Shown here in pieces: positions 4,117-24,105 of a stretch of 64,000 bases of DNA. The notes under the pieces are model-generated. The model made no database searches. It worked only from the letters and a program-made list of their open reading frames with translations, and had not been told where the DNA came from. The number at the start of each line of letters is the position of its first letter. The stretch's first letter is position 1. The stretch is taken from the NCBI RefSeq assembly GCF_045037415.1, contig NZ_CP173438.1; one strand, 5' to 3'. Made by a program: the position numbers and the translations under genes. This DNA is from Escherichia coli. GTDB lineage: Bacteria; Pseudomonadota; Gammaproteobacteria; Enterobacterales; Enterobacteriaceae.

Positions 4117-4452
4117 ATGTCAGGTGAGAAACCAAGATACCGCGTTCTGCGCCTCTCTCATATCCATAACACTCTGTGGCCGGAGGGGGCAGAAATCGAA
4201 TACGAAGGTGAGCCTGGTAGCGCACTGGAACCTGTTAACGATGCAGCCAGACAGGCAAAAGCAAAGGTAGCAGGAAAGGTGTCTATGGCAGCAACCAGCA
4301 CCAAAATCATCAACGATGTGTCAGATGATGGTGAACTGGATAAGCTCCGTGAAGAGTACGAATTGCTCTTTAACGAGAAGCCACACCATAACGCCAAAGC
4401 AGAAACGCTCCGCGAGAAGATCGCAGATAAGCGTAAAGAACTGGGCGTGTAA
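4117..4452 (+). CDS. Hypothetical phage protein (about 111 aa)
   Basis: ORF in late operon; ATG at 4117 preceded by AAGGTG. Confidence 0.55.
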   Translation: MSGEKPRYRVLRLSHIHNTLWPEGAEIEYEGEPGSALEPVNDAARQAKAKVAGKVSMAATSTKIINDVSDDGELDKLREEYELLFNEKPHHNAKAETLREKIADKRKELGV

Positions 4453-4502
4453 GCCTCGCGGATGAGACAAGGGGCTTCGGCCCCTTTATTGCAGGAGTGT
4501 AT

Positions 4503-4826
4503 ATGGAACTCGTAAACCTCAAAACCGGCACTGACAGCTACCAGGATGAGAGCGGAGAAACCAGAACTCGCGATGAATACCCGTGGGGGCTGTGCATCAC
4601 GCTGAATAACGACACATTGAATAAGCTGAAGGCGCAACCTCAGGGCGTCGGAACAGAAGTGATGATAACTGCAAAGGCTGTTATCCGAGGCCTGTCTGCC
4701 AGAGAAACTGACGATGGCGTTAATCGCAGCGCCGATCTGCAGATCACTGATATGGCGATCGCTCCTGTTTCCGGGGATGTAGAAAAATCAGCGGCTGAAA
4801 CTCTGTACGGTAACGGAGGTGAGTGA
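4503..4826 (+). CDS. Small virion protein, possible capsid decoration protein
   Basis: CAGGAG RBS then ATG at 4503; size and position match a small capsid-associated protein in epsilon15-type layouts (inference). Confidence 0.45.
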   Translation: MELVNLKTGTDSYQDESGETRTRDEYPWGLCITLNNDTLNKLKAQPQGVGTEVMITAKAVIRGLSARETDDGVNRSADLQITDMAIAPVSGDVEKSAAETLYGNGGE

Positions 4827-5431
4827 TGGCCTCTGTAGTAGAGATCTGTAATCGTGCGCTGTCCAATATTGGCAACAGCCGCAGCATTAACAGCCTGACG
4901 GAAGCCAGCAAGGAAGCGGGGGAATGTTCGCTGCACTTTGAGGCCTGCCGTGATGCTGTGCTTTCTGATTTTGACTGGAACTTTGCTACCAAACGCGTGG
5001 CGCTTGCAGATACGAGCAATCCACCGCCTGACTGGGAATATGCGTACCAGTACCCGTCAGATTGTCTGCGCATTACTGAAATTATGCTTCCTGGTGTACG
5101 CAATCCAACAGCAGCAATGCGCGTTCAGTACGAAGTTGGTGCAGACACCAACGGAACAGGAAAATTGATCTACACAGACCAGCCGCAGGCATGGCTCAAG
5201 TATGTCTCTCGCGTTTCAGATGTAAACATGTTTGATGCCATTTTTATGGAGGCGCTGGCCTGGCGTCTTGCGGCAGCCATTAACATGGCGCTGACTGGGA
5301 ATGCGGATCTCGGTACATTTGCTCTCAATATGTACAATCGCGTGATTCTTAGTGCTGGCTCGCATAGCCAGAATGAATCACAGGAACCACAGCCACCGGT
5401 TGACGAGTTTACCATTGCGAGGTTGTCCTGA
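4826..5431 (+). CDS. Tail tubular protein A-like adaptor (about 200 aa)
   Basis: GGAGG RBS; size and position before a roughly 820-aa protein as in T7 gp11/gp12. Confidence 0.55.
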   Translation: MASVVEICNRALSNIGNSRSINSLTEASKEAGECSLHFEACRDAVLSDFDWNFATKRVALADTSNPPPDWEYAYQYPSDCLRITEIMLPGVRNPTAAMRVQYEVGADTNGTGKLIYTDQPQAWLKYVSRVSDVNMFDAIFMEALAWRLAAAINMALTGNADLGTFALNMYNRVILSAGSHSQNESQEPQPPVDEFTIARLS

Positions 5432-7902: not shown

Positions 7903-8366
7903 TGATCGATGTTCAAATTATTCCCGCAACCGAAGAGCATCTTCAGATGATTTTGCCGGATGTTCGTCAGGCTGATATTGACGAACTGTATGCGGTATCA
8001 CTGATGACTACCGAAGATGCGCTGCGTGTTGGTCTGCGTACTGCGACTATGGCCTGGTCAGGATTTGCGAACGGAGAACTGGTAACCATGTTTGGCGTAT
8101 CTCCGGCGTCAATGATCGGTGGCAATGGTACGCCATGGCTGGTAGGAACCAGCCGTATTGAAAAATATCAGAAGACATTTCTTCGCCACTGCCGCCCTGT
8201 ATTGCAGCAGATGCTGGCAGTTTATCCGCGTCTGGAAAACTACGTCGACGAGCGAAACCATGTTGCCAAAGCATGGCTCCACTGGCTTGGATTCAGGCTT
8301 GAAGAAGCCGCGCCTTATGGTGCTCTTGGTCTTAATTTCCACAGATTTCACATGGAGAGAAAATAA
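7902..8366 (+). CDS. Hypothetical virion protein (154 aa)
   Basis: Overlapping start and stop in late operon. Confidence 0.55.
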   Translation: MIDVQIIPATEEHLQMILPDVRQADIDELYAVSLMTTEDALRVGLRTATMAWSGFANGELVTMFGVSPASMIGGNGTPWLVGTSRIEKYQKTFLRHCRPVLQQMLAVYPRLENYVDERNHVAKAWLHWLGFRLEEAAPYGALGLNFHRFHMERK

Positions 8367-8905
8367 TGTGTAACCCAGCCATCGCTTTGGTTGCCGTCAC
8401 AGTGGCATCCACAGCCGCGTCAATGTACAGCCAGAGCAAGCAGGCAAAATACCAGTCAGCCATAGCTGATCGGAATGCTGAAATTGCTGAAGCTCAGGCA
8501 CAGGATTCAATCAATCGTGGGAATATTGAAGCGGATCAGCGTCGTCGTGAAATGCGTCAACGCTCAGGCACTGCGGCGGCCACTATGGGGGCTACCGGTG
8601 CGGAATTAAGTAGCGGAACAGCTCTTGACGTTTTTGCGGATAATGCTCAGTTCGGCGCTCTTGATGCGTTAACGACAGTGAATAATGCTCAGCGTGAGGC
8701 ATATGGGTATCAGGTTCAGGGAATGAATGCTCAGGCACAGGGGGCTGCTGCTCAGTCGGCTGCTAAATCATCGATGACCAGCACTTTGTTAACAGCACCA
8801 CTAAAAGCATACGGTGCATACCAGATGGGCGGAGGAACGTGGAGCCCATTCTCTCAGAAGGCTGCGCCGATTTCTGCTGCTGTTGGCACTCCAACCGGTC
8901 GATAA
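8366..8905 (+). CDS. Internal virion protein with hydrophobic N-terminus (179 aa)
   Basis: TAATG overlap; hydrophobic N-terminal segment; position equivalent to T7 gp14. Confidence 0.5.
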   Translation: MCNPAIALVAVTVASTAASMYSQSKQAKYQSAIADRNAEIAEAQAQDSINRGNIEADQRRREMRQRSGTAAATMGATGAELSSGTALDVFADNAQFGALDALTTVNNAQREAYGYQVQGMNAQAQGAAAQSAAKSSMTSTLLTAPLKAYGAYQMGGGTWSPFSQKAAPISAAVGTPTGR

Positions 8906-8917
8906 GGGGATAATAAG

Positions 8918-11431
8918 ATGCCAGTTGTACCAACAACATCGGGCCGTCAGGTTCAGAGCAGAGGGATTTCGACGCAGGGATTCTCATCGTTTCAGACGCC
9001 AAATGTCGGTGATGTACTTGGCGATGTTGCAGAGCAATATGCAGGTATTATTGCGCAGGCAAAACAGCGTGCGAATGTTGCTATGGCTCAGGATGCTTCT
9101 CTTAGCTTAAGCCAGATAAGCAGCGATCTGCTGAATAACCCTGAAACAGGTTTGCTTAACCTGAAAGGGAAAAATGCTATTGGAAAAGGTCAGGAGTATA
9201 CGCAGCAGTTTGATGCCCAGGTCGAGCAACTGGCTATGTCGCTGCCGGATGAACAGGCTCGTAATGCTTTCATGCAGCAGGCGCAGCAGCAGCGCATTCA
9301 GTTCACTACGCAGGCCGGGCGGCACGAGATAGGGCAAATAAATGCCTACGAAGAAGGCCAGTTTCAGGCGACGCTGCTGAACAATGGTAAAAATGCCGCA
9401 GCATTGTATGGCGACAACGCCGCATACGTATTGGCTAATAAGCAAACTTTCCAGCAAATTGAGGATTACGGCATTGCGCATGGCTGGAGCGACGAGCAAA
9501 TCCAGGCCAAGAAAATCGAGTTTAAAGAGAAGGTTGCTGATGCAGCATTGTCCCAGTGGTCGGCAAACAATGCGACCGCATTCATCCAAAGTAATGGCGA
9601 GTTAAGTGATACTGCTGCTGGAGCTAGCCGTGCTGTAGCAGATAGTGATTCTTCCGAGCGTGCCCGTGGCATACGCAACAATAACCCAGGAAATCTCGAA
9701 TACAGCAAAACCAATCCGTGGGTAGGCCAGACCGGTGATGATGGTCGATTTGCTAAATTCGAAACACCTGAACACGGGATTCGTGCATTAGGGCGGAACC
9801 TGATGTCGTATCAGAGGCAGGGTATTGATACCGTCAGCGAGATAATTAATCGCTGGGCACCGCCTACTGATAAAAATGACACTATGTCGTATATCAAAGC
9901 AGTGTGCGAACAACTTGGCGTTTCTGCTGATGAGCCTCTCGATGCATCTAATCCTGATACCCTGAAGGCGCTTTGTGCAGCCATTATCCATCATGAGAAC
10001 GGTAGCCAGCCATACAGTGATCAGCTGTTAAGTGCTGGTGTCAGTGCAGCACTTGGTTTATCAACAATTCCAACCAACACCAAACGCTATACCGGTAATG
10101 CAGCATTCGATGCGGCATCTCCTGAGGCGCAGGCAAGTTTTATGCGACAGGCGGATCAACTGCGTCGGCAGCAGCAGGCTGAATATAAAACGATGATTGA
10201 CAGCCAAGTTCGCGATGCGACAGCTGCGTATATGCGTGGCGTTGAATTTCCTAACCCACCTGGTGAGGCTGATTTTATTGCAGCTTATGGAGTCAGAGAA
10301 GGAAACCTGCGATATACCGAGTTCAGAAATACGCAAATCGCCGGACAGTATATAGGCTCTTTCCGCAACATGCCGACAAGCAGCATTACAGCATATGTTG
10401 AGCAATTACGCCCGGATACTGGTGAGACAGGGGAGGGTTATGCGGCACGAGCCGCTCTTTATGACAACGTTGTGTCGGCTGCAAGTCAGGTGATAAAGCA
10501 GCGACAGGCTGATCCTGTACAGTTCTCTCTTGCCGCCGGACAGGCAAAGCCTATCGACATGAGCAATAAGGATAACTTTGGACAGAGCGTTGCCTTGCGT
10601 GCTGCTCAGGTCAGTGACCTTGCTAAGTCATATGGCACTCCACTGACGTTCTTTTCCAAAGACGAGGCCAATCAGATCGGTGTTTTCTTTCGTAATGCGC
10701 CCGTTTCCCAACAGGCAGCATATCTCGATACCATCAGGCAGAGCACTGGTGGTGGGCAGGTGTATATGTCAGCACTACAGCAGATCAGTGCCAACGCTCC
10801 ATCTGCTGCCGTTGCCGGGATACTGATGGATAAGCCAGGTGGTATTTTGGCAGAAAAAAACTGGTTTAATCCGGATGTTTCCGTGTCTCCTGAAACCGCT
10901 GCGCAGACAATTCTTGCTGGCGCGGCGGCTCGTAAAGGTACTGATGACGCGAAAGGTATTCCGATGCCTAAAGATGCTGATCTTCGCCTTGAGTTTTCTG
11001 ACATGGTGAAGGATGCATTTGCTGGTGATGCTCAGGGGGCATCAATGGCATACGAGATCGCAAAGGACTATTACGCTGGTGTGATGGCGAAAAAAGGCGT
11101 GGTATCAGGCGAAATTGACAATGATATCTGGAAACAGGCTGTTAACGTAGCTACAGGTGGCGTGCATGACTATAACGGAATGGGGAATGTTCTTTTGCCT
11201 TGGGGAATGTCTGCAGAGCAATTCGATAAGCAGGTTAATCAGGTTTGGAATGAACAAGTTGTTGGCACAGGGATAAAAACACCGCCTGGTCAGTATGGTT
11301 TGCAAAGTTACGGCGATAGTCAGTACCTGGTGAAACTTGGTACTGGTTATCTGCTAAAAGATGATGGTTCTCCCGTTGTTCTTGATCTGACACAGAAGCG
11401 TCAGAGATTCTCCGGAGATATTCCGCAATGA
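8918..11431 (+). CDS. Large internal virion (ejection/core) protein, 837 aa
   Basis: RBS AAGGGGA; first of three consecutive large proteins equivalent to podovirus core proteins; contains a GIRNNNPGNL motif block. Confidence 0.6.
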   Translation: MPVVPTTSGRQVQSRGISTQGFSSFQTPNVGDVLGDVAEQYAGIIAQAKQRANVAMAQDASLSLSQISSDLLNNPETGLLNLKGKNAIGKGQEYTQQFDAQVEQLAMSLPDEQARNAFMQQAQQQRIQFTTQAGRHEIGQINAYEEGQFQATLLNNGKNAAALYGDNAAYVLANKQTFQQIEDYGIAHGWSDEQIQAKKIEFKEKVADAALSQWSANNATAFIQSNGELSDTAAGASRAVADSDSSERARGIRNNNPGNLEYSKTNPWVGQTGDDGRFAKFETPEHGIRALGRNLMSYQRQGIDTVSEIINRWAPPTDKNDTMSYIKAVCEQLGVSADEPLDASNPDTLKALCAAIIHHENGSQPYSDQLLSAGVSAALGLSTIPTNTKRYTGNAAFDAASPEAQASFMRQADQLRRQQQAEYKTMIDSQVRDATAAYMRGVEFPNPPGEADFIAAYGVREGNLRYTEFRNTQIAGQYIGSFRNMPTSSITAYVEQLRPDTGETGEGYAARAALYDNVVSAASQVIKQRQADPVQFSLAAGQAKPIDMSNKDNFGQSVALRAAQVSDLAKSYGTPLTFFSKDEANQIGVFFRNAPVSQQAAYLDTIRQSTGGGQVYMSALQQISANAPSAAVAGILMDKPGGILAEKNWFNPDVSVSPETAAQTILAGAAARKGTDDAKGIPMPKDADLRLEFSDMVKDAFAGDAQGASMAYEIAKDYYAGVMAKKGVVSGEIDNDIWKQAVNVATGGVHDYNGMGNVLLPWGMSAEQFDKQVNQVWNEQVVGTGIKTPPGQYGLQSYGDSQYLVKLGTGYLLKDDGSPVVLDLTQKRQRFSGDIPQ

Positions 11432-13230
11432 GTTACTTTGGCCTTAATCCAGTAAACCAGAATCAGCAGCTTGACGAAGCAGCATCAAATCCAGCTGGCT
11501 TTAACAGCGATGTTGGTTTTTTCGACAATGCTGTAGGAGCGGCATTGTCTGGTTTGTACTCCGGGCTGGTGGCAAAGCCAGATCAGTTGCTCTGGGCAGG
11601 GATGGATAAAATCGTATCCCCGATTGCTCAGTTTGTTAACGAAAACACCTCGCTCAATGACACTTCAGTTTCATACATTGCCGAGCAGAGAAAACTAGCA
11701 GAGCAGCAGGTTAAGCGGCTGACGCCTGATGCCGCGACAACCGGAACCGCCGGGCAGGTTCTTTATGGGTTGTTCGATATGGGCGGGCAGGCTGTTGTCG
11801 GTACAACGCTCGGTGGTCCTGTCGGAGGTGCAGCGGCGGTAACTTCGCTACAGGGTTTTTCTGAGTTTGAACGGCTGACAGCACAGGGTGTTGATTTCAG
11901 GACAGCGCAGGAAGCGGGATTAGTGCAGGGCATTACTGCTGGGGCCGGGACATTGATCCCTATGAGCCTCGGGTTACGTGCTGGTGGTGCGCTGGCGGAA
12001 GGTGTGGCGGCTCAGCTCGCGCGGACGGGTGAGAGTTCAGTGCGACGCGCCGCAGCAACAGCAGTACGTGCAACGCCAGATATTGCCTATGCCGCAGGTA
12101 CAAATATTGCGTTCGGTATGGCACAGCGTGGGCTTACTGCAAAAACGCTTCGTGATGGTGGCTATAGCGAAATGGCTAACCAGTATGATGTGTTGGATCG
12201 ACAGGCAATTGCTATTGATGCTGTTCTTGGGGTGGCGTTTGGTGGTGTCGGCAGATTTATTAACTCTCGCGGCGAGTCTACAAGCGCACCAAATTTTTCA
12301 CAAGTTGATGTTGATGCTGCACTGGCGGCGAATGCCGCTCATCATGCTGAAATTGATATTGCGCCCGGCGTGCCGATCAACGTGCTTTCGCGCAATTCTC
12401 ACATTCAGGCTCTGCGAAAAGCTATGTCTGATGTTAGCCAAGGGAGACCTGTAGACGTTGCCAGCATTGTTGAGTCTGCATCTTTCAGTGAAATTCCTGG
12501 GCGCAAGAGTCTGCTGTCTCAGGCAGTTAATGAGGCTCTGTCATCTGTAGATGATGGAGTAACGGCGCGCTCTATAGAAAATCGGTTGCTTGAAGAACAG
12601 GCCGCGCAGCTTTTGCCGCGTGGAGATAGACAGGTTTACCAGTCTGAAATCGCTAATAGCCAACGAATTATTGAAAATCTCACTGAACAGCGTGCACAAA
12701 TTCTTGCAGAAGATCCAACCGGTAGCGGTAAAGCTTTGTCTCGTGCTCGATCAGATAAACAGGCCAGACTTCGCGATATTGATCAACGAATCCGGCAGGC
12801 ACAAGAACGCCTGGAATTTTCCCGTAACGCGTTGGCACCGCACGAGCCTGGCGGTCAGTTTTTTGAAGCTCGAGCAGAACTGGCTCGGAGACAGCAGGCA
12901 GAAAGTGAACTTAATGCTCAGGCTGTTTCATTCTATAAAACAGCAGAGGTCAGGACGCCAGACGAAGTAGCTCCTTTTGAGCCTGATAAAATATTGCAAC
13001 AGGCAGAACAAAAAATGATGGCGGATCAGGCGGGAGATATTGATCTGCGCATAGCTGAAGACTCGCTGCTTGAATCACCTGACATGATAATCACCGTGCT
13101 GGATGATGATGGTAATCCACAATCGCGCAGCGCGCGTGAAGTACTGGATGAAGCGAACAGGGAAAGTGAGCAGGCAATACAGGATTCAAGCCTGTTTGAT
13201 GTAGCTGTGGCGTGTTTCTTGAGAGGTTAA
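11428..13230 (+). CDS. Internal virion protein, 600 aa
   Basis: ATGA overlap; Ala/Gly-rich N-terminal half, coiled-coil-like C-terminal half. Confidence 0.55.
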   Translation: MSYFGLNPVNQNQQLDEAASNPAGFNSDVGFFDNAVGAALSGLYSGLVAKPDQLLWAGMDKIVSPIAQFVNENTSLNDTSVSYIAEQRKLAEQQVKRLTPDAATTGTAGQVLYGLFDMGGQAVVGTTLGGPVGGAAAVTSLQGFSEFERLTAQGVDFRTAQEAGLVQGITAGAGTLIPMSLGLRAGGALAEGVAAQLARTGESSVRRAAATAVRATPDIAYAAGTNIAFGMAQRGLTAKTLRDGGYSEMANQYDVLDRQAIAIDAVLGVAFGGVGRFINSRGESTSAPNFSQVDVDAALAANAAHHAEIDIAPGVPINVLSRNSHIQALRKAMSDVSQGRPVDVASIVESASFSEIPGRKSLLSQAVNEALSSVDDGVTARSIENRLLEEQAAQLLPRGDRQVYQSEIANSQRIIENLTEQRAQILAEDPTGSGKALSRARSDKQARLRDIDQRIRQAQERLEFSRNALAPHEPGGQFFEARAELARRQQAESELNAQAVSFYKTAEVRTPDEVAPFEPDKILQQAEQKMMADQAGDIDLRIAEDSLLESPDMIITVLDDDGNPQSRSAREVLDEANRESEQAIQDSSLFDVAVACFLRG

Positions 13231-13235
13231 ATTAA

Positions 13236-15710
13236 ATGAGACAGGAATGTATACAAGCGGTCCAGCAGGCGGCGCAGCGCACGTTAACGGCGCGAGAAAT
13301 ACAGAACATTGAAGACCGCATTTATCGAAATATGCGCTCCATTGCTCGTGATGACCCGATGTCGTGGAGACAACTTTCCGAATCAGAGCGGCTATATCGT
13401 GCAGCACAATTGGCATCTGAAGAATTACAGCGAGAAGCGGCATTAAAGAAACGTCGTGTGGCCCTCACTATAGCCGCACGTCAGAGATTGGATAAATTTA
13501 TCAATAGCTATCAAGGGGCTGATGGGAAACTTGGCGCTCTTAACCGTACTATTGCTTTTAATGCAGACGGTAAATCGAATTTCCTCTCTGTTGAGTCCAG
13601 AACAAAAGCCACTCGTGATTATGCATTGAGTCAATTGCAAGAGGCATTTGAAGCAGTTGATCCTCGCTTTTTTGGCCTGTTTGAAGATGAAGCTGGCGTG
13701 CGTGACCTGGTATATGAAATGCGAGGGCAAAATACTGGCAATGCTAAAGCAAGAAAAGGTGCTAAGGCGTGGAGAGAAGTTACAGAGCTGCTGCGCCGCC
13801 GGTTTAATGATGCTGGTGGGGACATTGGCTATCTCGAAAACTGGGGGATCCCTCAACATCATTCTATGGAAAAGGTTGGGGCGGTATCAAAGGATAAGTG
13901 GGTTGGCGATGTTATAGGTAAGCTGGATCGCAAATATTATACCCGAGCCGATGGACAACTGATGAACGATGCCGAGTTGTCTGCATTTCTTGGAGAGGCT
14001 TATAACACGATAGCTACTGGTGGGCTGAATAAGCTTACTGATACCGGAATGCGAATTTCCGGCGCACGTGCTAACCGTGGTAATGCATCACGACAGATAC
14101 ATTTCAAAAATGCAGATTCCTATCTCCAATATCAACAACTTTATGGTGATCGCTCTCTATGGGAAATCATGGTCGGTCACCTGGAAGGTATCAGTAAAGA
14201 TATTGCTCTGGTGGAAACATATGGTCCAAACCCCGATCATGTTTTCCGCTCCCTTCTTGATCAGGTGAAGGCAGAAACGGCAACAGCTAACCCGAGTAAA
14301 ACCGGTAAAGTCGAGCGGCTGGCGAACAACACAGAGAATCTGTACAACTTTATTTCCGGAAAGACACAGCCTGTAGCGAATCCGCACATCGCGCGATGGT
14401 CTGACAATATCCGCAACTGGCTGGTTGCCAGCAGACTCGGATCCGCGTTGCTGTCATCGTTCTCTGATCTTGGAACCATGTATCTGTCTGCGAAGGTTAC
14501 CAACCTTCCAATGAACCAGTTATTCCGCAACCAGCTTGAAGCTATGGACCCAACGAACCGTACAGAACTTGCGCGGGCGCGCCGCGCTGGTCTGGCGATG
14601 GAATCTCTACTTGGCAGCGTTAACCGCTGGGCGATGGATAATATGGGGCCGTCTGTGTCTCGTTGGGCTGCAACGGCGGTAATGCGTGCCAGTGGGCTTA
14701 CAGCATGGTCAGATGCGCACAAGCGCGCCTATGGCGTAACCATGATGGGAAGCCTGGGAGAAGTAGTGTCACGGACACCAGACCTTCGTAGCCTCGATGA
14801 TTCTGATTTTCGTATCCTGAAAAGCAAAGGGATTACTGACACAGACTGGAGCGTATGGAAGCTGGCGCAACAGGAGGACTGGGGGAACGGCAATAATACG
14901 ATGCTGACACCGGAAAGCATTATGCGTATCCCTGATTCAGCAGTTAAACATCTTGGTGAGCCTGAACGCGTGAAATTTGAGGCAATGCGTAAACTGCTCG
15001 GTGCCGTAACTGAAGAAGTTGATATGGCTGTTATTACACCGGGAGCACGTGAGCAACTGATAACCGGTTCTGGTATTCAGCGTGGAACATGGAAAGGTGA
15101 ATTAACGAGAAGTGTTTTCCTGTTTAAATCGTTCCCTATCTCGGTGGTTATGCGTCACTGGTCACGCGCTATGGGTATGCCGTCTGCTGGTGGGCGTGCG
15201 GCATATATTGCGACGTTTATTGCCAGTACGACCATTCTTGGCGCTTTGTCGCAGCAACTTAACGACCTTGCGTCTGGTCGTAATCCTCGCGAGATGACAG
15301 GAGAAGATGCTGCTAAATTTTGGCTTGGTGCTCTACTGAAAGGTGGTGGTCTTGGCCTTTACGGTGACTTTTTATTGTCAGATCACACTAGGTACGGAAG
15401 CGGCGCGCTGGCGTCGATGCTTGGCCCGGTAGCTGGTCTGGTTGATGACGTAGTGAAGATTGCTCAGGGCATACCGTTAAATGCTGTGGAAGGGAAGAGT
15501 GAGCAGACTGGTGGTGATCTGGTGAAGCTGGGGAAAGGTTTGATGCCTGGTGCGAATCTCTGGTACTTGAAGGCGGCTCTCGATCACATGATCTTTAACC
15601 AGATGCAGGAGTATTTTTCACCAGGCTATTTGCGTAAAATGGAGCAACGTTCGAAGAAAGAGTTTAACCAGACATACTGGTGGCGACCACAGGATGTCAC
15701 TCCGCAATAA
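13236..15710 (+). CDS. Large internal virion (core/ejection) protein, 824 aa
   Basis: Third large protein of the internal-protein block. Confidence 0.6.
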   Translation: MRQECIQAVQQAAQRTLTAREIQNIEDRIYRNMRSIARDDPMSWRQLSESERLYRAAQLASEELQREAALKKRRVALTIAARQRLDKFINSYQGADGKLGALNRTIAFNADGKSNFLSVESRTKATRDYALSQLQEAFEAVDPRFFGLFEDEAGVRDLVYEMRGQNTGNAKARKGAKAWREVTELLRRRFNDAGGDIGYLENWGIPQHHSMEKVGAVSKDKWVGDVIGKLDRKYYTRADGQLMNDAELSAFLGEAYNTIATGGLNKLTDTGMRISGARANRGNASRQIHFKNADSYLQYQQLYGDRSLWEIMVGHLEGISKDIALVETYGPNPDHVFRSLLDQVKAETATANPSKTGKVERLANNTENLYNFISGKTQPVANPHIARWSDNIRNWLVASRLGSALLSSFSDLGTMYLSAKVTNLPMNQLFRNQLEAMDPTNRTELARARRAGLAMESLLGSVNRWAMDNMGPSVSRWAATAVMRASGLTAWSDAHKRAYGVTMMGSLGEVVSRTPDLRSLDDSDFRILKSKGITDTDWSVWKLAQQEDWGNGNNTMLTPESIMRIPDSAVKHLGEPERVKFEAMRKLLGAVTEEVDMAVITPGAREQLITGSGIQRGTWKGELTRSVFLFKSFPISVVMRHWSRAMGMPSAGGRAAYIATFIASTTILGALSQQLNDLASGRNPREMTGEDAAKFWLGALLKGGGLGLYGDFLLSDHTRYGSGALASMLGPVAGLVDDVVKIAQGIPLNAVEGKSEQTGGDLVKLGKGLMPGANLWYLKAALDHMIFNQMQEYFSPGYLRKMEQRSKKEFNQTYWWRPQDVTPQ

Positions 15711-15721
15711 AAGGAGATATG

Positions 15722-15844
15722 ATGGTTCAAATAACTTTTATTGTACTAATATGTGCAGCGTTTTTATGCTATTCATACATTTTGATAAAAATGGGTTTCA
15801 ATTGGAATCTCTGTTGCGTGCAGCGGCATGGTTCGGCTTTGTAG
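15722..15844 (+). CDS. Possible small hydrophobic protein (40 aa) in AT-rich moron
   Basis: AAGGAG RBS at 15711-15716 with 5-nt spacer to ATG; hydrophobic product; a competing 62-aa ORF (15694-15882) uses another frame. Confidence 0.3.
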   Translation: MVQITFIVLICAAFLCYSYILIKMGFNWNLCCVQRHGSAL

Positions 15845-15929
15845 TATTAGGAATTGTATTGTTCGGAAGAATAATAAAATAACTAGTTAATTTGTGGATT
15901 GGTGCTGTTTTTCCATGATAGGGGTAATT

Positions 15930-16310
15930 ATGAGAAAAGTATTTTTGATTTTTGGATTTATGCTTCTCGTTGGATGCCAGTCAGCTGCACAGTTTGAAAG
16001 AAATATGCTTACGTGGCGCGGGCAGAGTATAGACGCAATGGTTCAGCAGTGGGGGTATCCTCAGGGAGAGCTTACATCTCCAGATGGAAACAGAGTGTAT
16101 GTTTACTCAAGCTCTGGTAGTTATAACGTACCACAAACCACAACGTATAATACTACGTCTAATCTAATTGGTAATACTATATATTCAAACACATACGCAA
16201 CAACTGATGGCGGTTATACACTCCATTTCAGTTGCTCTGTTTACGTTGAGTTTGGTGCTGATAAGATTATTAAAAATGTTACATGGCGCGGTAATAATTG
16301 CGTTGCGTGA
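15930..16310 (+). CDS. Lipoprotein (moron), 126 aa
   Basis: Signal peptide MRKVFLIFGFMLLVGC with lipobox LLVGC; AT-rich context; terminator directly downstream. Confidence 0.7.
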   Translation: MRKVFLIFGFMLLVGCQSAAQFERNMLTWRGQSIDAMVQQWGYPQGELTSPDGNRVYVYSSSGSYNVPQTTTYNTTSNLIGNTIYSNTYATTDGGYTLHFSCSVYVEFGADKIIKNVTWRGNNCVA

Positions 16311-16319
16311 CATGTCACA

Positions 16320-16343
16320 GGCCGCTTTCGCGGCCTTGTTTTT
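16320..16343 (+). terminator. Rho-independent terminator after lipoprotein gene
   Basis: GGCCGC-TTTC-GCGGCC hairpin followed by TTGTTTTT. Confidence 0.7.
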
Positions 16344-16503
16344 AACGAATGCCACCGCCACCCGGGCGGGAATCCGCAGAACGCCCACCGCAGCGGGAGC
16401 CGTCAGCAGCAGTGTCGCTGTCGTGCTGACAACGACCGGCAAAGGCCTGAGTTGAAGCTACCAGAGACAACAAAACGAACAGTGCAGCAAATGCTTTTTT
16501 CAT
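16342..16503 (-). CDS. Possible small secreted peptide (53 aa)
   Basis: Signal-peptide-like N-terminus MKKAFAALFVLLSLVASTQAFA; GC-rich low-complexity mature part with two Cys; weak RBS. Confidence 0.3.
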   Translation of the reverse strand: MKKAFAALFVLLSLVASTQAFAGRCQHDSDTAADGSRCGGRSADSRPGGGGIR

Positions 16504-16575
16504 TGTGAAATTTCCATCTATAAGCCACCTCAATGTGGCGTCAATGAGTGTAGCACTGACTTTTGTTTCGTCCAC

Positions 16576-16597
16576 AAAAAAGCCCGCGCTGCGGGCT
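16576..16597 (-). terminator. Rho-independent terminator of the reverse cassette
   Basis: GCCCGC-GCT-GCGGGC hairpin followed by a U-run on the minus strand, directly after the 16602 stop. Confidence 0.7.
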
Positions 16598-16601
16598 TCT
16601 A

Positions 16602-17234
16602 TTAATGCAGTTTATCTTTGCTTATAACCAGTAGTCTGTGGGTATGCACATCTTTATCACTGCCCCAACAGAAATCAGCCCACTGGCTATAGAAATCATC
16701 CCATGATGTCATGAAGCTAAGAGGTCTATCTTCTTCAGAGCCATCTGAAACGTATACATTATATCCTGGGGTGTTTATAGCCCAAGAAATCATTCTTTCC
16801 CAGAATCTTCTCCCATCGATTGTTTGTTGCTCATCAGATACAACGATCGCATATTGCTCTAGGAAGAACTGAAAAAAAATCTGAGGCAAACCATGAACAG
16901 CACGGTCATGAATAACATTAGGCGTACGCCATACCATGATCTGCGTACATGTTCTTTTGGCTTCGACGATATCTTCCCGAAAGATTAACTTAACCGCATA
17001 CACCGTTTCTGGAGTATCGCTGGTAGTAATCATTCTGTAATGATCGCCATTACAAGATTTTACAAGGCGATAACCATAAGGTGTTGTGAATCCCGGAAGA
17101 ACGAAATCAACCACACCTTTCGCTAAGTAGCTTTCGGTGTGACTAGTGTTCTTCTCAGACATGTTCAGTTTTCTATCGAAATCTGCTTCTGGGATAATGT
17201 ATGGCATCGCTTTTCTTGTTGTATTTGTTCTCAT
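16602..17234 (-). CDS. Uncharacterised cargo protein, 210 aa
   Basis: Strong RBS GGGAGG 5 nt before ATG; own sigma70-like promoter and operator upstream; no family recognised; AT-rich. Confidence 0.75.
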   Translation of the reverse strand: MRTNTTRKAMPYIIPEADFDRKLNMSEKNTSHTESYLAKGVVDFVLPGFTTPYGYRLVKSCNGDHYRMITTSDTPETVYAVKLIFREDIVEAKRTCTQIMVWRTPNVIHDRAVHGLPQIFFQFFLEQYAIVVSDEQQTIDGRRFWERMISWAINTPGYNVYVSDGSEEDRPLSFMTSWDDFYSQWADFCWGSDKDVHTHRLLVISKDKLH

Positions 17235-17293
17235 TTCGTCCTCCCATGTTTGGCTACAGGACGCGTTTTGAAGGGAAGATTAAAAATGCTTTC

Positions 17294-17308
17294 TTACCCT
17301 TGAGGTAA
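17294..17308. promoter_or_regulatory. Operator-like palindrome TTACC-N5-GGTAA (copy 1) overlapping the start region of the 16602-17234 gene
   Basis: Perfect 5-bp inverted repeat with 5-bp spacer; abuts the predicted -10. Confidence 0.5.
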
Positions 17309-17336
17309 TAGTACGCTATTCACCCCCAGTCTGCAA
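17308..17336 (-). promoter_or_regulatory. Sigma70-like promoter for the 210-aa gene
   Basis: Minus-strand TTGCAG-N17-TACTAT, about 75 nt upstream of the ATG. Confidence 0.45.
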
Positions 17337-17380
17337 TCTGTACAGAATTATTTAAAGGCACATCCCTGTGCCGCCGCCCG

Positions 17381-18037
17381 TCAGAAGAACCCTGCCTTGT
17401 CGTTGATGTACTCCGCGTGCGTCTGGATATCACGCAGGCATTTGCTCACACCAACGATGTAGCAGAACATGGTGGTCAGCTCCGCCGCCGCGCCCGATAC
17501 GTCGTGCCCGTCGTCCTGTAACTGGTTCAGCAGATTCATCAGCAGTGAGTTCTCCGTCAGGCCGAGAACACCAGACGGCGAGTGAATCAGGCTGCGGTAG
17601 CCGGGCTTCAGTGGGGCACTGTATTCTTTTTTGTCTTCCAGCTTGATCGCCTCCATAATGGCGGGCATGAAGCCTGACAAGACCTTCTCCACTTTTGTTT
17701 CTTGTTGTCTTAAACGTTTCTCGCATTCAATGAAGTAGCGTCGCACCTGGCGACCTTTTTCGTTACGCTCGACCATCGCCAGCTCTTTGGCTGTATCAAG
17801 GGTGAGGTGGTACTCTTTGCGGTTGTGGCCGCCTCTACCAGATGTTTGCTTTCCCAAATTGGAAAGCAAAATATAGTCTTGATTTTCAATGAATTCGTAT
17901 TCTGATATGCGATTTGTAATCCATGCTGCAAACACCTTTTTAACACCTAAAAAAGCGTGCAGATCGCGGGCATTACAAAGTAGGGCTGTTTCGTTAGATA
18001 TAGTGCCGTTGAATACGGGGATGAGTTGAGCGTTCAT
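17381..18037 (-). CDS. Antirepressor-like protein: AntA-type N-terminal domain plus C-terminal domain paralogous to the small SOS-controlled protein
   Basis: GGAG RBS; N-terminal motif [27 protein letters not shown] typical of AntA/AntB antirepressor domains; C-terminal 70 aa about 40% identical to the 18357-18614 product. Confidence 0.65.
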
Positions 18038-18196
18038 GATGGCGTCTCCACTTAGCGAATTACATCACCACCGCTGAGAACCAATCAGATGGTGGTGAAC
18101 TGAACGGAGTTGGTCTTACCGGCCTAAGTGGTACCGGCGTCCTTTCGGACCCCCATTCAGCCCACCATAATTCTGGCATGACTGTGCTATACGCAT

Positions 18197-18218
18197 AAAA
18201 AAACCACGTCTGGCGTGG
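18197..18218 (-). terminator. Putative rho-independent terminator between the small SOS-controlled gene and the antirepressor gene
   Basis: CCACG-N5-CGTGG hairpin followed by seven U on the minus strand; short stem. Confidence 0.4.
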
Positions 18219-18308
18219 TATGCGCCACTTAGTAATCCGGGAGAACCAATCCCGGCACTGGATTTTGCCAGTGCCCGATTACTATGGCACAAGAGGAGTG
18301 CGATGTAA

Positions 18309-18327
18309 ATTTACCGCAAAGGTAAAT
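18309..18327. promoter_or_regulatory. Operator-like palindrome ATTTACC-N5-GGTAAAT (copy 2)
   Basis: 7-bp inverted repeat with 5-bp spacer, same core as copies 1 and 3. Confidence 0.45.
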
Positions 18328-18356
18328 ATAAGCACTCCATTTGGTAATTTCAAACC

Positions 18357-18614
18357 TTATCTGGTTTGTTTTCGTAATTGTTCGGCACAATAGTCGAGAT
18401 GTGTTTGCAGATCCTGCATAGACATCTGTGAGCTGGTGACGTAGTTAATCAGTGCAGTCAGTTCGGCAAGTGGGCCATCGACATTAAATCCATCCTTATC
18501 GAGATCCCGGAGTAATTTCATCAAGTGCGATCCCTCCACCAGTGACCTGACGCCTCCCGGCGTGTGAATCCTTTCGGTAAATCCGTCTTCCAGTGGATAG
18601 TGATACTGCTGCAT
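18357..18614 (-). CDS. Small SOS-box-controlled protein (about 85 aa), candidate SOS-inducible antirepressor
   Basis: GGAGAA RBS before ATG at 18614; LexA box 19 nt upstream; homologous to C-terminus of the adjacent AntA-like protein; ORF track extends to 18737 but upstream part covers promoter and operator. Confidence 0.6.
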   Translation of the reverse strand: MQQYHYPLEDGFTERIHTPGGVRSLVEGSHLMKLLRDLDKDGFNVDGPLAELTALINYVTSSQMSMQDLQTHLDYCAEQLRKQTR

Positions 18615-18633
18615 CTTATCTTCTCCATGCAAT

Positions 18634-18653
18634 AACTGTATATTTATACAGTA
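18634..18653. promoter_or_regulatory. LexA (SOS) box
   Basis: AACTGTATATTTATACAGTA matches the E. coli LexA consensus TACTGTATATATATACAGTA at 18 of 20 positions, with CTGT-N8-ACAG intact. Confidence 0.75.
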
Positions 18654-18689
18654 GCAAATAATTTGTTTGCTATCCAGCACGTTTTGCAA

Positions 18690-18706
18690 ATTACCTGAAA
18701 GGTAAT
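18690..18706. promoter_or_regulatory. Operator-like palindrome ATTACC-N5-GGTAAT (copy 3) upstream of the LexA box
   Basis: Perfect 6-bp inverted repeat with 5-bp spacer. Confidence 0.5.
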
Positions 18707-18809
18707 ATCTATTCGTATTTACAGCCTTTCTATCCATATGTGGTTTTCCAGGTAATAGAATAACCAGATATGCGGCGCAACGGGTGCTGCGACTATCTGG
18801 AGATTTAAC

Positions 18810-21461
18810 ATGACGGTTTCAACCGAAGTTGACCACAACGAATACACCGGTAACGGAGCTACGACATCATTTCCGTATACCTTCCGTATTTTCAAAAAAT
18901 CCGACCTGGTTGTTCAGGTGTCTGACCTGAACGGGAACGTAACAGAATTGGTTCTGGATACTGACTACACAGTAACCAATGCTGGAGGATATAATGGCGG
19001 TAATGTAATTCTGTCGAAGGCGTTGGCTAACGGTTATCATATTTCTATATCACGAGAGCTCCCGGTTACGCAGGATACTGATTTGCGTAATCAGGGTAAG
19101 TTCTTCGCTGAGGTACATGAAGACGCGTTCGATAAACTGACAATGCTTATTCAAAAGTGTTTTTCATGGATGAGGTTAGCACTTATAAAACCAAGCATTC
19201 TGGCTAACTATTATGATGCAAAAAATAATAAGATATCAAATCTAGCAAATGCCACTGACAGAAACGATGCTGTCAATAAAGGTTATGTTGATGATCTTTT
19301 TACTGGAGGTGTAACGCCTACATCTAACAGCGCTAAAAACGATATTTTTACAAATCACCAAAGAAAGATTGTAGCTACGATGCCGCTTCTTTTTCCTGAA
19401 TATGATGCGATTATGGCTGCTAACCCGTCAGCAACTTATATGTATCCTCAAGGATTCTGCGTTAGCGAAGATTTGATATACATCACTTATCCATTTGAGC
19501 CTAAACAGACGAATAATGTCGTCGCAGTATTTAACATATCTGGTATTTATCAAGGTTATTTCTATGTTCAGGCTGGCGGCCCAGGCTTCGCTGCTGAAGG
19601 AATCGTGGTTACGTCAGACTATGGCCCCAAAAAAATGTTTGTTGGTCACACAAACGGAATACTGCGTGAATTTAATATGGAGGGGGCATTATACGGAAGC
19701 AATCTGCCTCTTGTACAAAACCATGATGTTGGATTATTCAACCAGTTCAGCTACAGAAGAGGTATATGGCTCGTTGAGCAGAATGCGCCAGAAGTAGGAC
19801 AGAAAATCACAAGAACTGTACTTGCAGTGTTCGACAGTGGTTTCAATCGCCTGTCAACTATAACGCTGCCGTTACATGATGTTGGGTATGTAACTAAAAG
19901 CACCTCACCTTATGCGCCTTATTTCAACAAGCGTCAGGGTATTGCGGTAGGTGATAACTACTTTGTCTGCGGCTATGGCGGCTTCATAGCTGATGGGGCA
20001 GGAAGCGCAGGATATAACGAATATCAGGGCAGCAAAGTTTTTAACCCTGACGGTACAAAGCGAACTGAATCAATGCTTCATCCTCAGGCCATGATGGATT
20101 TAATGAAAGCCGCAGGATTGAACGTCACTCGCATAGAAAATGAAGGCGTTTGTGTTTCTCAGGATGGAAAATCCATTTATTCACTTTACATTCATCAGGA
20201 AAGAACTGGCTCTGAACCTTACAATTCAGGTTTGGTTATTTTCGAAGATTTCTCCACTGATAAAGATGCTATCGATTTTACACCTGCATCCAGGCTTTAC
20301 CGCGGATTTGATATCGATCACGCGAGCATTGGGGTATATCCCCGTAGTGCGAAGGGGATTGTTAACCCTGTAGATGGTACGTTGTTCACTAACATGACTG
20401 AAATTCTTCGCTATATGCAGGAGATGAGTCAGAAGGCATTTAATTTTTACACAGGGACTGTCAGCATTGCTGATATATCTGGCGTGGCAATCCCTTCCAG
20501 CACATATGTTGAAATACTGAATGCGAATAATCAGACTTTTATAGTCAACTATTATTCATCTGATAGTGGCATTAGTTATTTGGTTGCAACTAATCCTTCT
20601 GGTGACTTTGTATTTGTGCGCCAGCGACCGGCACAGTGGGCATCTAACTTAACCATTCAGCAAAACGCAGATCCTGATACAAACCAATTAAACCGCATCA
20701 CTGCATCATCATATGCCGGTGCAACTACAAACTCTCAGAAAATATTGGTCCTTGACCAGCAGGCTACAGCTAGCGCAAATAGCTTGGTATTGGGCGGTAG
20801 TTCTTCTGTGTTTAGGTCTGCCACCACGGTGGATATTGCATGCAACAGCGACCCGACAGCATTGGGAGGAACCATACGCTGGCGGTTTTATGATACAGGT
20901 CTTCGCCCGTTTGCTGACAATACCTATAATTTTGGTCAGGCATCGTTTCGTATTAAAGACGCCTACTTTGCAAATGCCCCAACCGTTTCATCAGATGCCA
21001 CGCTGAAAACCAATCCCGAGGCAATATCAGATTTAAGTGAAATGCTTTCTTCTGATAGAGACAGCATTCTTGATGCCTGGGGCGATATTTCTGTTGTGGC
21101 GTATCGATGGCTCGACGCTATATCCATGAAGGGCGATGGTGCCAGATGGCATTTTGGCGTCATGGCTCAGCAGGTAAGGGATGTATTCTTGGCGCACGGA
21201 ATTGATGGAACCAGATTTGGCCTTCTTTGCTATGACGAGTGGGATGATATTTTTGAGCCGGTAATCGCGACTAAAGAGATTACCGATACGTCTGGTGAGT
21301 TGGTCACCGTCGAATATGACACCGGAGAACAGAGGCTGGTTAAAAAAGCGGGTAGTTCATGGGGTATACGGCCTGACCAGTGCGCTTGGCTTGAGGCTGC
21401 ATATCAGCGCCGTCGATGCGATCGTATTGAAGAGCGACTCGAACTATTGGAATCAAAATAA
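18810..21461 (+). CDS. Tailspike protein with C-terminal intramolecular chaperone (peptidase S74-like) domain, 883 aa
   Basis: RBS CTGGAG; conserved-looking N-terminal virion-anchor region; C-terminal block (RWHFGVMAQQVRDVF...) resembles the self-cleaving chaperone domain of endosialidases and tail fibres. Confidence 0.75.
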   Translation: MTVSTEVDHNEYTGNGATTSFPYTFRIFKKSDLVVQVSDLNGNVTELVLDTDYTVTNAGGYNGGNVILSKALANGYHISISRELPVTQDTDLRNQGKFFAEVHEDAFDKLTMLIQKCFSWMRLALIKPSILANYYDAKNNKISNLANATDRNDAVNKGYVDDLFTGGVTPTSNSAKNDIFTNHQRKIVATMPLLFPEYDAIMAANPSATYMYPQGFCVSEDLIYITYPFEPKQTNNVVAVFNISGIYQGYFYVQAGGPGFAAEGIVVTSDYGPKKMFVGHTNGILREFNMEGALYGSNLPLVQNHDVGLFNQFSYRRGIWLVEQNAPEVGQKITRTVLAVFDSGFNRLSTITLPLHDVGYVTKSTSPYAPYFNKRQGIAVGDNYFVCGYGGFIADGAGSAGYNEYQGSKVFNPDGTKRTESMLHPQAMMDLMKAAGLNVTRIENEGVCVSQDGKSIYSLYIHQERTGSEPYNSGLVIFEDFSTDKDAIDFTPASRLYRGFDIDHASIGVYPRSAKGIVNPVDGTLFTNMTEILRYMQEMSQKAFNFYTGTVSIADISGVAIPSSTYVEILNANNQTFIVNYYSSDSGISYLVATNPSGDFVFVRQRPAQWASNLTIQQNADPDTNQLNRITASSYAGATTNSQKILVLDQQATASANSLVLGGSSSVFRSATTVDIACNSDPTALGGTIRWRFYDTGLRPFADNTYNFGQASFRIKDAYFANAPTVSSDATLKTNPEAISDLSEMLSSDRDSILDAWGDISVVAYRWLDAISMKGDGARWHFGVMAQQVRDVFLAHGIDGTRFGLLCYDEWDDIFEPVIATKEITDTSGELVTVEYDTGEQRLVKKAGSSWGIRPDQCAWLEAAYQRRRCDRIEERLELLESK

Positions 21462-21558
21462 GACCAAATTTAGGTAATTATTATCCGTAAATGGTTTATT
21501 GTGTATGATGGACCTCATCTTCTAAGGGGGTTTTTATGCACAATAAACGGTGGTTACC

Positions 21559-21960
21559 ATGAATGGCACGGTTACGGCGGATTCACTGAATCAAGGGTTA
21601 AGCTTGGGTGCGCTGGCCTCTGTCGTCTACGGCGTTCCGCCAGAGGTGGCTCTCGGTGCTCTGGCTGGTGCGGTAATATTTGTTACCTCTGCTGTAGAGT
21701 ATCCTGTTCGTCGTCGTGTACTCTTGTCGATACTCAGCTTTCTTTGTGGTCTTCTCTTTTACAAACCAACAACATCAATTCTTATCGGAATAGCCAGCAT
21801 GATACCTACCATCACGCAGGACTCTTTCGAGAAAGGGATTGTTTTCTCTGCTGGCGCATTCGTGTCAGCAATTGTCGCAGTGCGAATTGGTATATGGCTC
21901 TATCACCGTTCTGATAATCCACGCCAGTTAATTCCTGGGAGAAAAGGCGATGGTAACTAA
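21559..21960 (+). CDS. Membrane protein with about four TM segments (holin or antiholin candidate)
   Basis: Hydrophobic helices; immediately upstream of holin-like and endolysin genes. Confidence 0.45.
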   Translation: MNGTVTADSLNQGLSLGALASVVYGVPPEVALGALAGAVIFVTSAVEYPVRRRVLLSILSFLCGLLFYKPTTSILIGIASMIPTITQDSFEKGIVFSAGAFVSAIVAVRIGIWLYHRSDNPRQLIPGRKGDGN

Positions 21961-22258
21961 TGAGCTTGTTTTGCTTATCACCAATGCAATTATTTGTACT
22001 GGCATAGCAATTCGCGTTGTCACATTCCGGCGTAACGGCTCTCAACATCGAAGATGGGGAGGGTGGCTTGCTTATTTCCTTATTGTTGCTGCGGCCAGTA
22101 TTCCTGTTCGTGTCGCCTATGCAATCTGGTTACGTACGCCAATGGCTGTGGATTTATCTGAGGTCATTATCAACGCTGTCATGCTTGCCGCGGTTATTAA
22201 AACACGCGGTAACGTTGTTCAGATTTTCAAAACATCGAGGTCTAAACATGGAGATTAA
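21950..22258 (+). CDS. Putative holin (102 aa, about three TM segments)
   Basis: Small membrane protein with charged C-terminus directly before the endolysin. Confidence 0.55.
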
Positions 22259-22877
22259 ACAATTCCAGCGAGCTGCTGGTATTAGCGAGGCTCTGGCCGC
22301 ACGCTGGTTCTCGCATATAACTTCTGCGATGAAAGAGTTTGGTATCAGAAAACCCGAAGATCAGGCAATGTTTATTGCTCAGGTCGGGCATGAGTCTGGT
22401 GGCTTCACCAGGTTGCAGGAGAATTTCAATTACAGCGTCACCGGACTGGCTAACTTCGTTCGTGCCGGTCGTCTTACTCAGGGACAGGCTAACGCATTGG
22501 GTCGTCGTGCAGGCGAGCCACCATTGCCACCTGAGCGCCAGCGTGCGATTGCCAATCTGGTGTACAGCAAACGCATGGGGAACAATGCCTCTGGTGATGG
22601 CTGGAATTACCGTGGCCGCGGACTTATCCAGATTACCGGTTTGAATAACTATCGTGATTGCGGAAACGGCCTGAAAGTGGACCTGCTGGAGAATCCTGAA
22701 CTGTTGGCGCAGGACGAATACGCGGCTCGTAGCGCGGCGTGGTTCTTCTCCAGCAAAGGTTGCATGAAGTATACCGGCGATATTGCACGTGTAACTCTGA
22801 TTATCAATGGTGGCAGGAATGGCATCGACGACCGGCGCGTGCGGTACATCACTGCCAGTAAGGTGCTGGCGGTATGA
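22248..22877 (+). CDS. Endolysin, glycoside hydrolase family 19-like
   Basis: GAGG RBS then ATG at 22248; motif [12 protein letters not shown] and [12 protein letters not shown] typical of GH19 lysozymes; ORF track start at 22017 is an in-frame upstream extension. Confidence 0.75.
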
Positions 22878-23371
22878 TCTGGGCATTCGCAAAAGCATAC
22901 CGGAAACAGTTGGTTGTCATGGCGATGCTTGCTGTTCTGGTCATATCAGGAGTTGTTGCCTGGAATGTGCATGGCAGCCGCCAGTACGATGCCGGGTATG
23001 CTCAGGCGAAGGAAGATCAGAAACAGGCTGATGATAAGTTAAGGTCACAGCGTGAGCAGGAGAAAACACAAATTGAACGTGAAGCACAATCCCGTATCGA
23101 TGCGGCGCGTGCTGATGCTGAGTATGCTAATTCCGCTGCTGACAGCATGCGCGCCGAGCTTGACAAAACCAGGCGGCTCGCCGAACACTATACCGGATCT
23201 TTCCCCCCTGGCACGCCAGCCAGCAAGGTCATCGGTGTGCTCGCCGACATGCTTGAAGAAAGCAACCGAGTTTACAACGCAACAGCAGCTGAGGCTGAAA
23301 AGTATCGTATCGCAGGGGAATTCTGCGAGCAGCAATACGATTCACTGAAGAAGCAAAAATCGTGGCACTGA
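22874..23371 (+). CDS. Rz-like i-spanin
   Basis: ATGA overlap with endolysin; N-terminal TM segment then charged coiled-coil region. Confidence 0.65.
23100..23348 (+). CDS. Rz1-like o-spanin lipoprotein embedded in the Rz gene (+1 frame)
   Basis: Lipobox LLTAC followed by a Pro-rich sequence; fully embedded in the spanin gene; start codon uncertain. Confidence 0.5.
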   Translation: MRRVLMLSMLIPLLTACAPSLTKPGGSPNTIPDLSPLARQPARSSVCSPTCLKKATEFTTQQQLRLKSIVSQGNSASSNTIH

Positions 23372-23458
23372 TTTCCGGTGACGGTATATAAAACGGTACG
23401 GTGAAAATCAGGTTACAGAAAGTTGTTACCAGTCAATTGGTTATGCATGCCGTAAATA

Positions 23459-23473
23459 ATTGAGTGGGAATGA
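23459..23473 (+). other. guaA: Retained 3' end of guaA (IEWE-stop) at the prophage-host junction; probable att core region
   Basis: ATTGAGTGGGAATGA encodes IEWE plus stop, matching the GMP synthase C-terminus as I recall it; an in-frame TAA sits 2 codons upstream, so the guaA body is not present here. Confidence 0.6.
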
Positions 23474-23501
23474 TTTGACCCTGCACTATGAATGAACAAA
23501 A

Positions 23502-23527
23502 CCCTCTGTTACTACAGAGGGTTTTTT
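23502..23527 (+). terminator. Rho-independent terminator (guaA terminator)
   Basis: CCCTCTGT-TACT-ACAGAGGG hairpin followed by TTTTTT. Confidence 0.8.
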
Positions 23528-23565
23528 ATCCTAAAGAATTATAGGTTTGAAGTTACTAACATCGT

Positions 23566-24105
23566 TTAGTTAAACCAGCTATCTGATTTATTCTCTTCTG
23601 CTTTACCCACGCTTTTCATCAGATCGCGACCGCCTTCAGTCATATTTCTGTTTGCGTCAGCTTCAGATTGCACCACATCGGTTTGCGCAGCTTTGTGCTT
23701 CAGTTCCTGATCGATAAATTCGTTTTCGCGCTTAACGCGGGCTTCTTCTTTCGCCAGCGCCAGTTTTTGTTTCTGAATCTCTAAGCTACGTAGCTCATCT
23801 TCATAACTTTGATCGCGTTTTTTGTCCGCAGTGGCTTCGGCGTCCAGTTTATCCTGACGAGCTTTCTTATTCGCTGCTGCCGTTGCCGCTCTTTTATTAG
23901 CCGCGGCCTGGGCGTTTGCGCGACGTTGCTTCTCTTGCTGGATTTCCCTGTTGCGCTCCGCGACCCATTCGTCATGCTGCCTTTGCTCTTCATTTTTACC
24001 TTGCTGTTCCGCTTCTGCGACAGCCGAGAGTTGATCCTGCAATGATGAGGCGATAGCCGGATAGCTTAAGGAGGCTAAGATGGCGCAAAGAAAAACTTTC
24101 TTCAT
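23566..24105 (-). CDS. yfgI: Uncharacterised protein YfgI
   Basis: 179-aa product with signal peptide and charged coiled-coil; matches K-12 neighbourhood. Confidence 0.85.
   Translation of the reverse strand: MKKVFLCAILASLSYPAIASSLQDQLSAVAEAEQQGKNEEQRQHDEWVAERNREIQQEKQRRANAQAAANKRAATAAANKKARQDKLDAEATADKKRDQSYEDELRSLEIQKQKLALAKEEARVKRENEFIDQELKHKAAQTDVVQSEADANRNMTEGGRDLMKSVGKAEENKSDSWFN

Follow-up and report, generated by a model that had tools for sequence, protein, structure and literature searches.

The attR junction of an epsilon15/phiV10-like prophage at the 3′ end of guaA in Escherichia coli

The window analyzed here, a 64-kb stretch of E. coli DNA, opens inside a prophage, in the portal gene. 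The prophage lysis cassette includes holins (21550-22258), a GH19 endolysin (22245-22877) and, as its last gene, an Rz-like i-spanin on the plus strand (22874..23371). The latter is a 165-aa ORF with a Pfam DUF2514 match (E = 4.6e-21), which carries a DUF2514 annotation in E. coli strain 447 and whose counterparts in phages phiV10 and epsilon15 are annotated as “Rz-like spanin”. Embedded within it in the +1 frame, on the same strand, is an Rz1-like o-spanin (23073..23348) with the lipobox LLTAC, and an embedded 276-nt Rz1 is annotated at the same place in both phages. The start of the Rz1-like gene is uncertain: the 91-aa gene of phiV10 suggests TTG at 23073, and the alternatives are ATG at 23100 or 23115. 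An initial annotation of this DNA had placed Rz/Rz1 genes upstream of a phage-host junction, in agreement with the DUF2514 spanin and the embedded LLTAC ORF.

Position 23372 is the first base past the stop codon of the Rz-like ORF and begins the phage (P) arm of the junction (23372..23458, plus strand), which can be aligned to the attP regions of phiV10 and epsilon15 and to eight others that are Uetakevirus or related. The P arm contains an arm-type motif, GGTGACGGTAT, at 23377-23387 and an in-frame TAA at 23453-23455. It is followed on the plus strand by the att core ATTGAGTGGGAATGATT (23459..23475), composed of the last four sense codons of guaA (IEWE), TGA and TT. Both the IEWE-stop codons and an in-frame TAA two codons upstream had been pointed out in the initial annotation and are present as described: ATTGAGTGGGAATGA occupies 23459-23473, and its frame reads ...LCMP*IIEWE*, with the TAA two codons before ATT.

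Beyond the core lies the host (B′) arm (23476..23565, plus strand), consisting of the native guaA 3′ UTR and the guaA/yfgI intergenic region. The first host gene is yfgI (DUF5384; 23566..24105, minus strand), which is convergent with guaA. It is a 179-aa ORF with a Pfam DUF5384 match (E = 4e-62) and is annotated as yfgI in strains 2/0, 447 and LS4. In the B′ arm, the guaA terminator consists of a 12-bp hairpin (23498-23525; G+C core, CCCTCTG/CAGAGGG) and a T6 run ending at 23527. By RNA folding, the 77-nt stretch 23459-23535 containing this hairpin reaches -21.8 kcal/mol (z = -3.7 versus shuffles). A simple consensus terminator scan did not list it, because an A/U extension of the stem takes up part of the T run on which the tail rule of the scan depends. 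The earlier reading of a terminator followed by yfgI is thus matched by a predicted G+C-rich hairpin and T-tract 3′ of the guaA stop codon, with yfgI on the minus strand. Scanning the junction for Rfam families and tRNA genes gave no hits, which indicates that the att site is not tRNA- or sRNA-associated.

The boundary between phage and host DNA was assessed with a 401-nt query across the junction. Homology to the guaA-yfgI region of prophage-free E. coli begins at query position 160 (window position 23459), and the match includes the end of guaA as annotated. Of 5,426 complete E. coli genomes, 5,416 match the host side, and from 23459 on, including the whole B′ arm, this side is 100% identical to the prophage-free strain LS4. 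On the phage side, homology to Uetakevirus phages reaches the core (phiv142-3, 96%; phiV10, 89%; epsilon15, 78%), and the P arm (23372-23458) has no homology to the empty attB. When the empty site of LS4, the attP sequences of phiV10 and epsilon15, and the window are aligned side by side, the block common to the phage and host sides is the 17 bp of ATTGAGTGGGAATGATT. Phage-only DNA extends up to 23458 and host-only DNA starts at 23476, so that the right boundary of the prophage is fixed to the base. The sequence had been described as switching to host DNA at a point; the junction does lie at the last codons of guaA, but the switch is a block of identity, 23459-23475, that reaches two bases past the stop codon.

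An identity of fifteen to seventeen bases is short, and the IEWE-stop match might have arisen by chance or by a local duplication of the end of guaA, independently of integration. The 17-mer has, however, a single exact match in the window and is still unique when up to three mismatches are allowed, with a chance expectation of 0.14. Its position coincides exactly with the start of host homology, the other prophage end has a second copy, and free phages carry it in their attP. Position, repeat and free-phage attP together refute this explanation, whose probability is practically nil.

The left prophage end, with attL and int, lies outside the window and was read from strain 447 (NZ_CP183089), which has 99.99% identity with the window across the full 64 kb and is not proven identical to it. 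The two differ by one mismatch and two single-base gaps over 25.7 kb and by two mismatches over the remaining 40.7 kb; the first 24 kb of the window have matches of about 100% in strain 447 and several relatives. Strain 2/0 (NZ_CP023853) matches the junction at 100% and was rejected as a source, as BLAST showed mosaic prophage differences at 4.5-18.3 kb.

In strain 447, a second copy of the 17-mer is situated 40,004 bp to the left, where it closes an intact guaA. The cores are at positions 5760 and 45764 of the strain 447 locus (L002), and guaA (4197-5774) encodes 525 aa ending in ...PPATIEWE*. The left flank runs xseA, guaB, guaA, core, a 192-nt P′ arm and a tyrosine integrase gene; to the right of the integrase the order continues through terminase, portal, capsid, tail fibre, holins, endolysin, Rz, P arm and core to yfgI. 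Strain 2/0 has the same guaA-core-int...Rz-core-yfgI layout.

These data bear out each prediction of the initial annotation, and every refuting condition that it named is contradicted. The intact guaA expected beyond the left end of the prophage is there, adjoining the other end in strain 447; ATTGAGTGGGAATGATT is shared by both ends as a direct repeat; guaA-yfgI is continuous in prophage-free strains, with the same 17-mer at the position of the junction; and E. coli GuaA does have IEWE as its C-terminus. The suggestion that the phage supplies the 3′ end of guaA is correct in that the phage brings a 3′ UTR and a terminator, but the coding end is identical to that of the host and GuaA is unchanged. 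The guaA frame is preserved at attL because the core is identical in attP, attB, attL and attR, and the same protein (WP_000138282.1) is found in lysogens and in the non-lysogen LS4, which indicates that the enzyme is untouched by integration.

The integrase next to attL in strain 447 has 99% identity with the phiV10 integrase and 87% with that of epsilon15, and contains the Pfam domains Arm-DNA-bind_3, Phage_int_M and Phage_integrase. The attP of both phages has the same core between Rz and int. Assignment of the prophage to the epsilon15 family, as put forward earlier, therefore gains support from both the integrase and attP. The element in strain 447 measures 40.0 kb, compared with 39,104 bp for phiV10 and 39,672 bp for epsilon15. 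Taken together, window positions 23372-23530 very probably represent the attR (P-O-B′) of a Uetakevirus (epsilon15/phiV10-like) prophage of about 40 kb inserted at guaA, a reading to which we give a probability of roughly 97%.

The statement in the initial annotation that phages of the epsilon15 group integrate at the 3′ end of guaA agrees with the literature, which gives the exact 17-mer (PMC9782041) and the guaA 3′ flank (PMC8138268). attgagtgggaatgatt has been reported as the attP core of phiV10 and epsilon15 (PMC9782041). Phage vB_EcoP_ZX5 uses this 17-mer at the guaA 3′ end for its own integration; its attB, attL and attR were verified by PCR and Sanger sequencing, and its integration had no measurable effect on host growth or virulence (PMC9782041). 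The epsilon15 integrase cluster, which includes CMGI-3-type elements, targets the guaA 3′ flank (PMC8138268), and the epsilon15 attP is credited to Kropinski et al. 2007 as cited there. A phiV10-like phage is located at guaA in an O103:H25 outbreak strain (PMC3293862). The feature is thus an ordinary, textbook att site that has already been published.

Relatives of the prophage share this organization. The attP region is covered to at least 80% in 30 phage records, which come from Escherichia, Salmonella, Enterobacter and Klebsiella. With the Uetakevirus phages phiV10 and vB_EcoP_ZX5, the prophage has in common an identical core, the order Rz/Rz1, P arm, core, P′ arm with terminator and int, and the same E. 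coli attB; identity amounts to 94% over 294 nt for the reconstructed attP and to 99% for the integrase. It differs from them mosaically elsewhere in the prophage, for example in the tail-fibre/accessory-gene region and in some internal virion proteins, and by a few substitutions in the P arm. Epsilon15 has the same core (18 of 18 bases shared with the E. coli attB), the same arm motifs GGTGACGGTA, the same terminator in the P′ arm and an integrase of 87% identity, whereas its host is Salmonella, its attP region is 83% identical and its serotype-conversion genes are different.

The 3′ end of guaA is a busy integration hot spot in E. coli, used by this phage type as well as by ICEs and islands. 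When a 100-nt probe across the empty site was applied (at least 80% coverage), attB was intact in 4,571 of 5,425 complete E. coli genomes, and the guaA site is thus split in about 16% of them. An attR of the type seen in the window occurs in 547 genomes, or about 10% of complete E. coli. In strain TW10573 (L007 1-6000), an element with trbJ/trbL conjugation genes abuts yfgI; the end of that element carries a SIR2 and ATPase gene pair, a candidate defence system. A non-phage island with a Fic/DOC gene abuts yfgI in strain EH53 (L006 1-6000), and a Klebsiella prophage record has the same core at the end of the Klebsiella guaA. Site occupancy and the exact boundary may both be useful for prophage boundary calling and strain typing.

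Given such neighbors, and the presence of CMGI-3-type elements within the epsilon15 integrase cluster (PMC8138268), the junction might belong to an ICE or a genomic island that uses the guaA site. The DNA left of the core is, however, collinear with Uetakevirus (portal, capsid, tail fibre, holins, endolysin, Rz/Rz1, P arm), and at 40.0 kb the element is about as long as phiV10 and epsilon15. The gene content of window positions 1-23458 and the attP alignment rule this reading out, and its probability is very low. It is also unlikely, to a lesser degree, that the prophage is a decayed, immobile remnant with attR as a historical scar. One DUF551 gene fragment in the strain 447 prophage is annotated as a pseudogene, as decay would produce. 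Against decay stand two intact cores of identical sequence, the conservation of the arm motifs, a full-length integrase with 99% identity to its counterpart in the viable phage phiV10, and long intact ORFs in the structural and lysis modules of an element equal in size to the free phages. The close relative vB_EcoP_ZX5, moreover, is spontaneously induced from the same site (PMC9782041).

For the Uetakevirus prophage, a lambda-style mechanism is the most likely. The attP site, located between Rz and int, would recombine with attB through the phage tyrosine integrase to give attL and attR. The integrase, with its N-terminal arm-binding domain, would join ATTGAGTGGGAATGATT of attP with the identical 17 bp of attB, where guaA contributes its four final sense codons, its stop codon and the two bases beyond. 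At attL, the guaA reading frame is kept and a phage 3′ UTR with a phage-borne terminator is gained; the native guaA terminator remains at attR, downstream of the phage lysis genes and facing yfgI.

Motifs in and around the core are compatible with such a mechanism. In the epsilon15 record, GGTGACGGTA has an integrase-binding-site annotation, and three IHF sites are marked as well. The P arm has one copy of GGTGACGGTAT and the P′ arm has two, one direct and one inverted; this motif is kept in 10 of 11 sequences from the Escherichia, Salmonella, Enterobacter and Klebsiella set. TGACGGTAT, which recurs twice in the P′ arm, is a putative arm-type site. The core is invariant over 16 nt in the alignment of eleven attP sequences. 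In the epsilon15 attP, the core flanks form an inverted repeat, TGTAAATAATT / AATGATTTACA, with exactly 7 bases, GAGTGGG, between its arms, and the version in the window and phiV10, GTAAATAATT / AATGATTAAC, keeps 8 of the 10 inverted-repeat positions by manual count.

An inverted repeat around a 7-bp overlap is the usual geometry of core-type sites of tyrosine recombinases. On this basis, strand exchange probably takes place within GAGTGGG, at 23462-23468 on the plus strand of the window, a placement derived from the epsilon15 inverted repeat. If the exchange occurs there, ATT at 23459-23461 would be physically phage-derived and AATGATT host-derived.

The arrangement resembles lambda-type integration at gene 3′ ends, as known for P4, P22 and HP1 at tRNA genes, in its tyrosine integrase, its arm-type and core-type sites and the regeneration of the gene at attL; the IHF sites annotated in the epsilon15 attP are a further likeness. 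Unlike the tRNA gene cases, the target here is guaA, a protein-coding housekeeping gene, and just 15 coding bases are duplicated.

The P′ arm at attL contains elements that resemble the native 3′ end of guaA. After a 46-nt spacer it carries AACCCTCTGTTtTTACAGAGGGTTTTT, in which 25 of 27 aligned positions are identical to the native guaA terminator. The terminator look-alike, AACCCTCTGTT..TACAGAGGGTTTTT (L002 5777-5860), is near-invariant among the 11 attP/attL sequences compared, which are Uetakevirus or related and represent four host genera. The phage P′ arm thus appears to give guaA a replacement predicted terminator in lysogens, and this terminator would end guaBA transcription before int.

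In addition, TGAGTGGGAATGA of the core and TCATTCCTATTCA of the P′ arm form an inverted repeat (attL, L002 5762-5809; phiV10, L004 2223-2270), and a third related copy lies 63 nt beyond. In RNA, a 13-bp stem formed by the first two copies encloses the guaA stop codon. In the resulting attL hairpin, UGAGUGGGAAUGA of the core pairs with the inverted P′ arm copy UCAUUCCUAUUCA, and the folding energy of the 101-nt attL segment is -35.8 kcal/mol (z = -7.9). A covariation search in the 11 attP sequences identified only one-sided changes, namely G-C pairs turned into G-U pairs and a single A-A mismatch. Because it codes for GuaA, the core side of the stem does not vary, and covariation consequently fits an RNA structure and DNA-level protein-binding repeats alike.

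The attL terminator and hairpin might have a regulatory effect on guaBA or int. In lysogens, the P′ arm, with its terminator look-alike and the inverted core copy TCATTCCTATTCA pairing with UGAGUGGGAAUGA, could give the guaBA mRNA an altered 3′ end, either changing mRNA stability or GuaA output or insulating int from read-through from the strong guaBA promoter. We regard this idea as doubtful; if true, it would mean that integration has a regulatory effect on purine metabolism or lysogen stability.

Some further observations concern the rest of the prophage and the window. Positions 4500-18330 are mosaic relative to the strain 2/0 prophage at the same site, with differences in the internal virion/ejection protein genes (~8.4-16.3 kb) and in the accessory region before the tail fibre. 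In strain 2/0, this accessory region holds two YafO-family toxin genes that are unlisted in the strain 447 annotation. Compared with strain 447, window positions 18080-19323 differ by one substitution and by two single-base indels that compensate each other; these changes fall partly before the tail-fibre gene and partly in its 5′ portion. The tail-fibre ORF in the window encodes 883 aa and starts at 18810; the start of the annotated gene in strain 447 corresponds to 18918. In the host DNA, ypfG (DUF1176; window ~57842-58886) is a frameshifted pseudogene according to the strain 447 annotation, a status that refers to strain 447 only. A tRNA-Arg gene is located between the terminase and portal genes of the strain 447 prophage (L002 21526-21602), just left of the window start.
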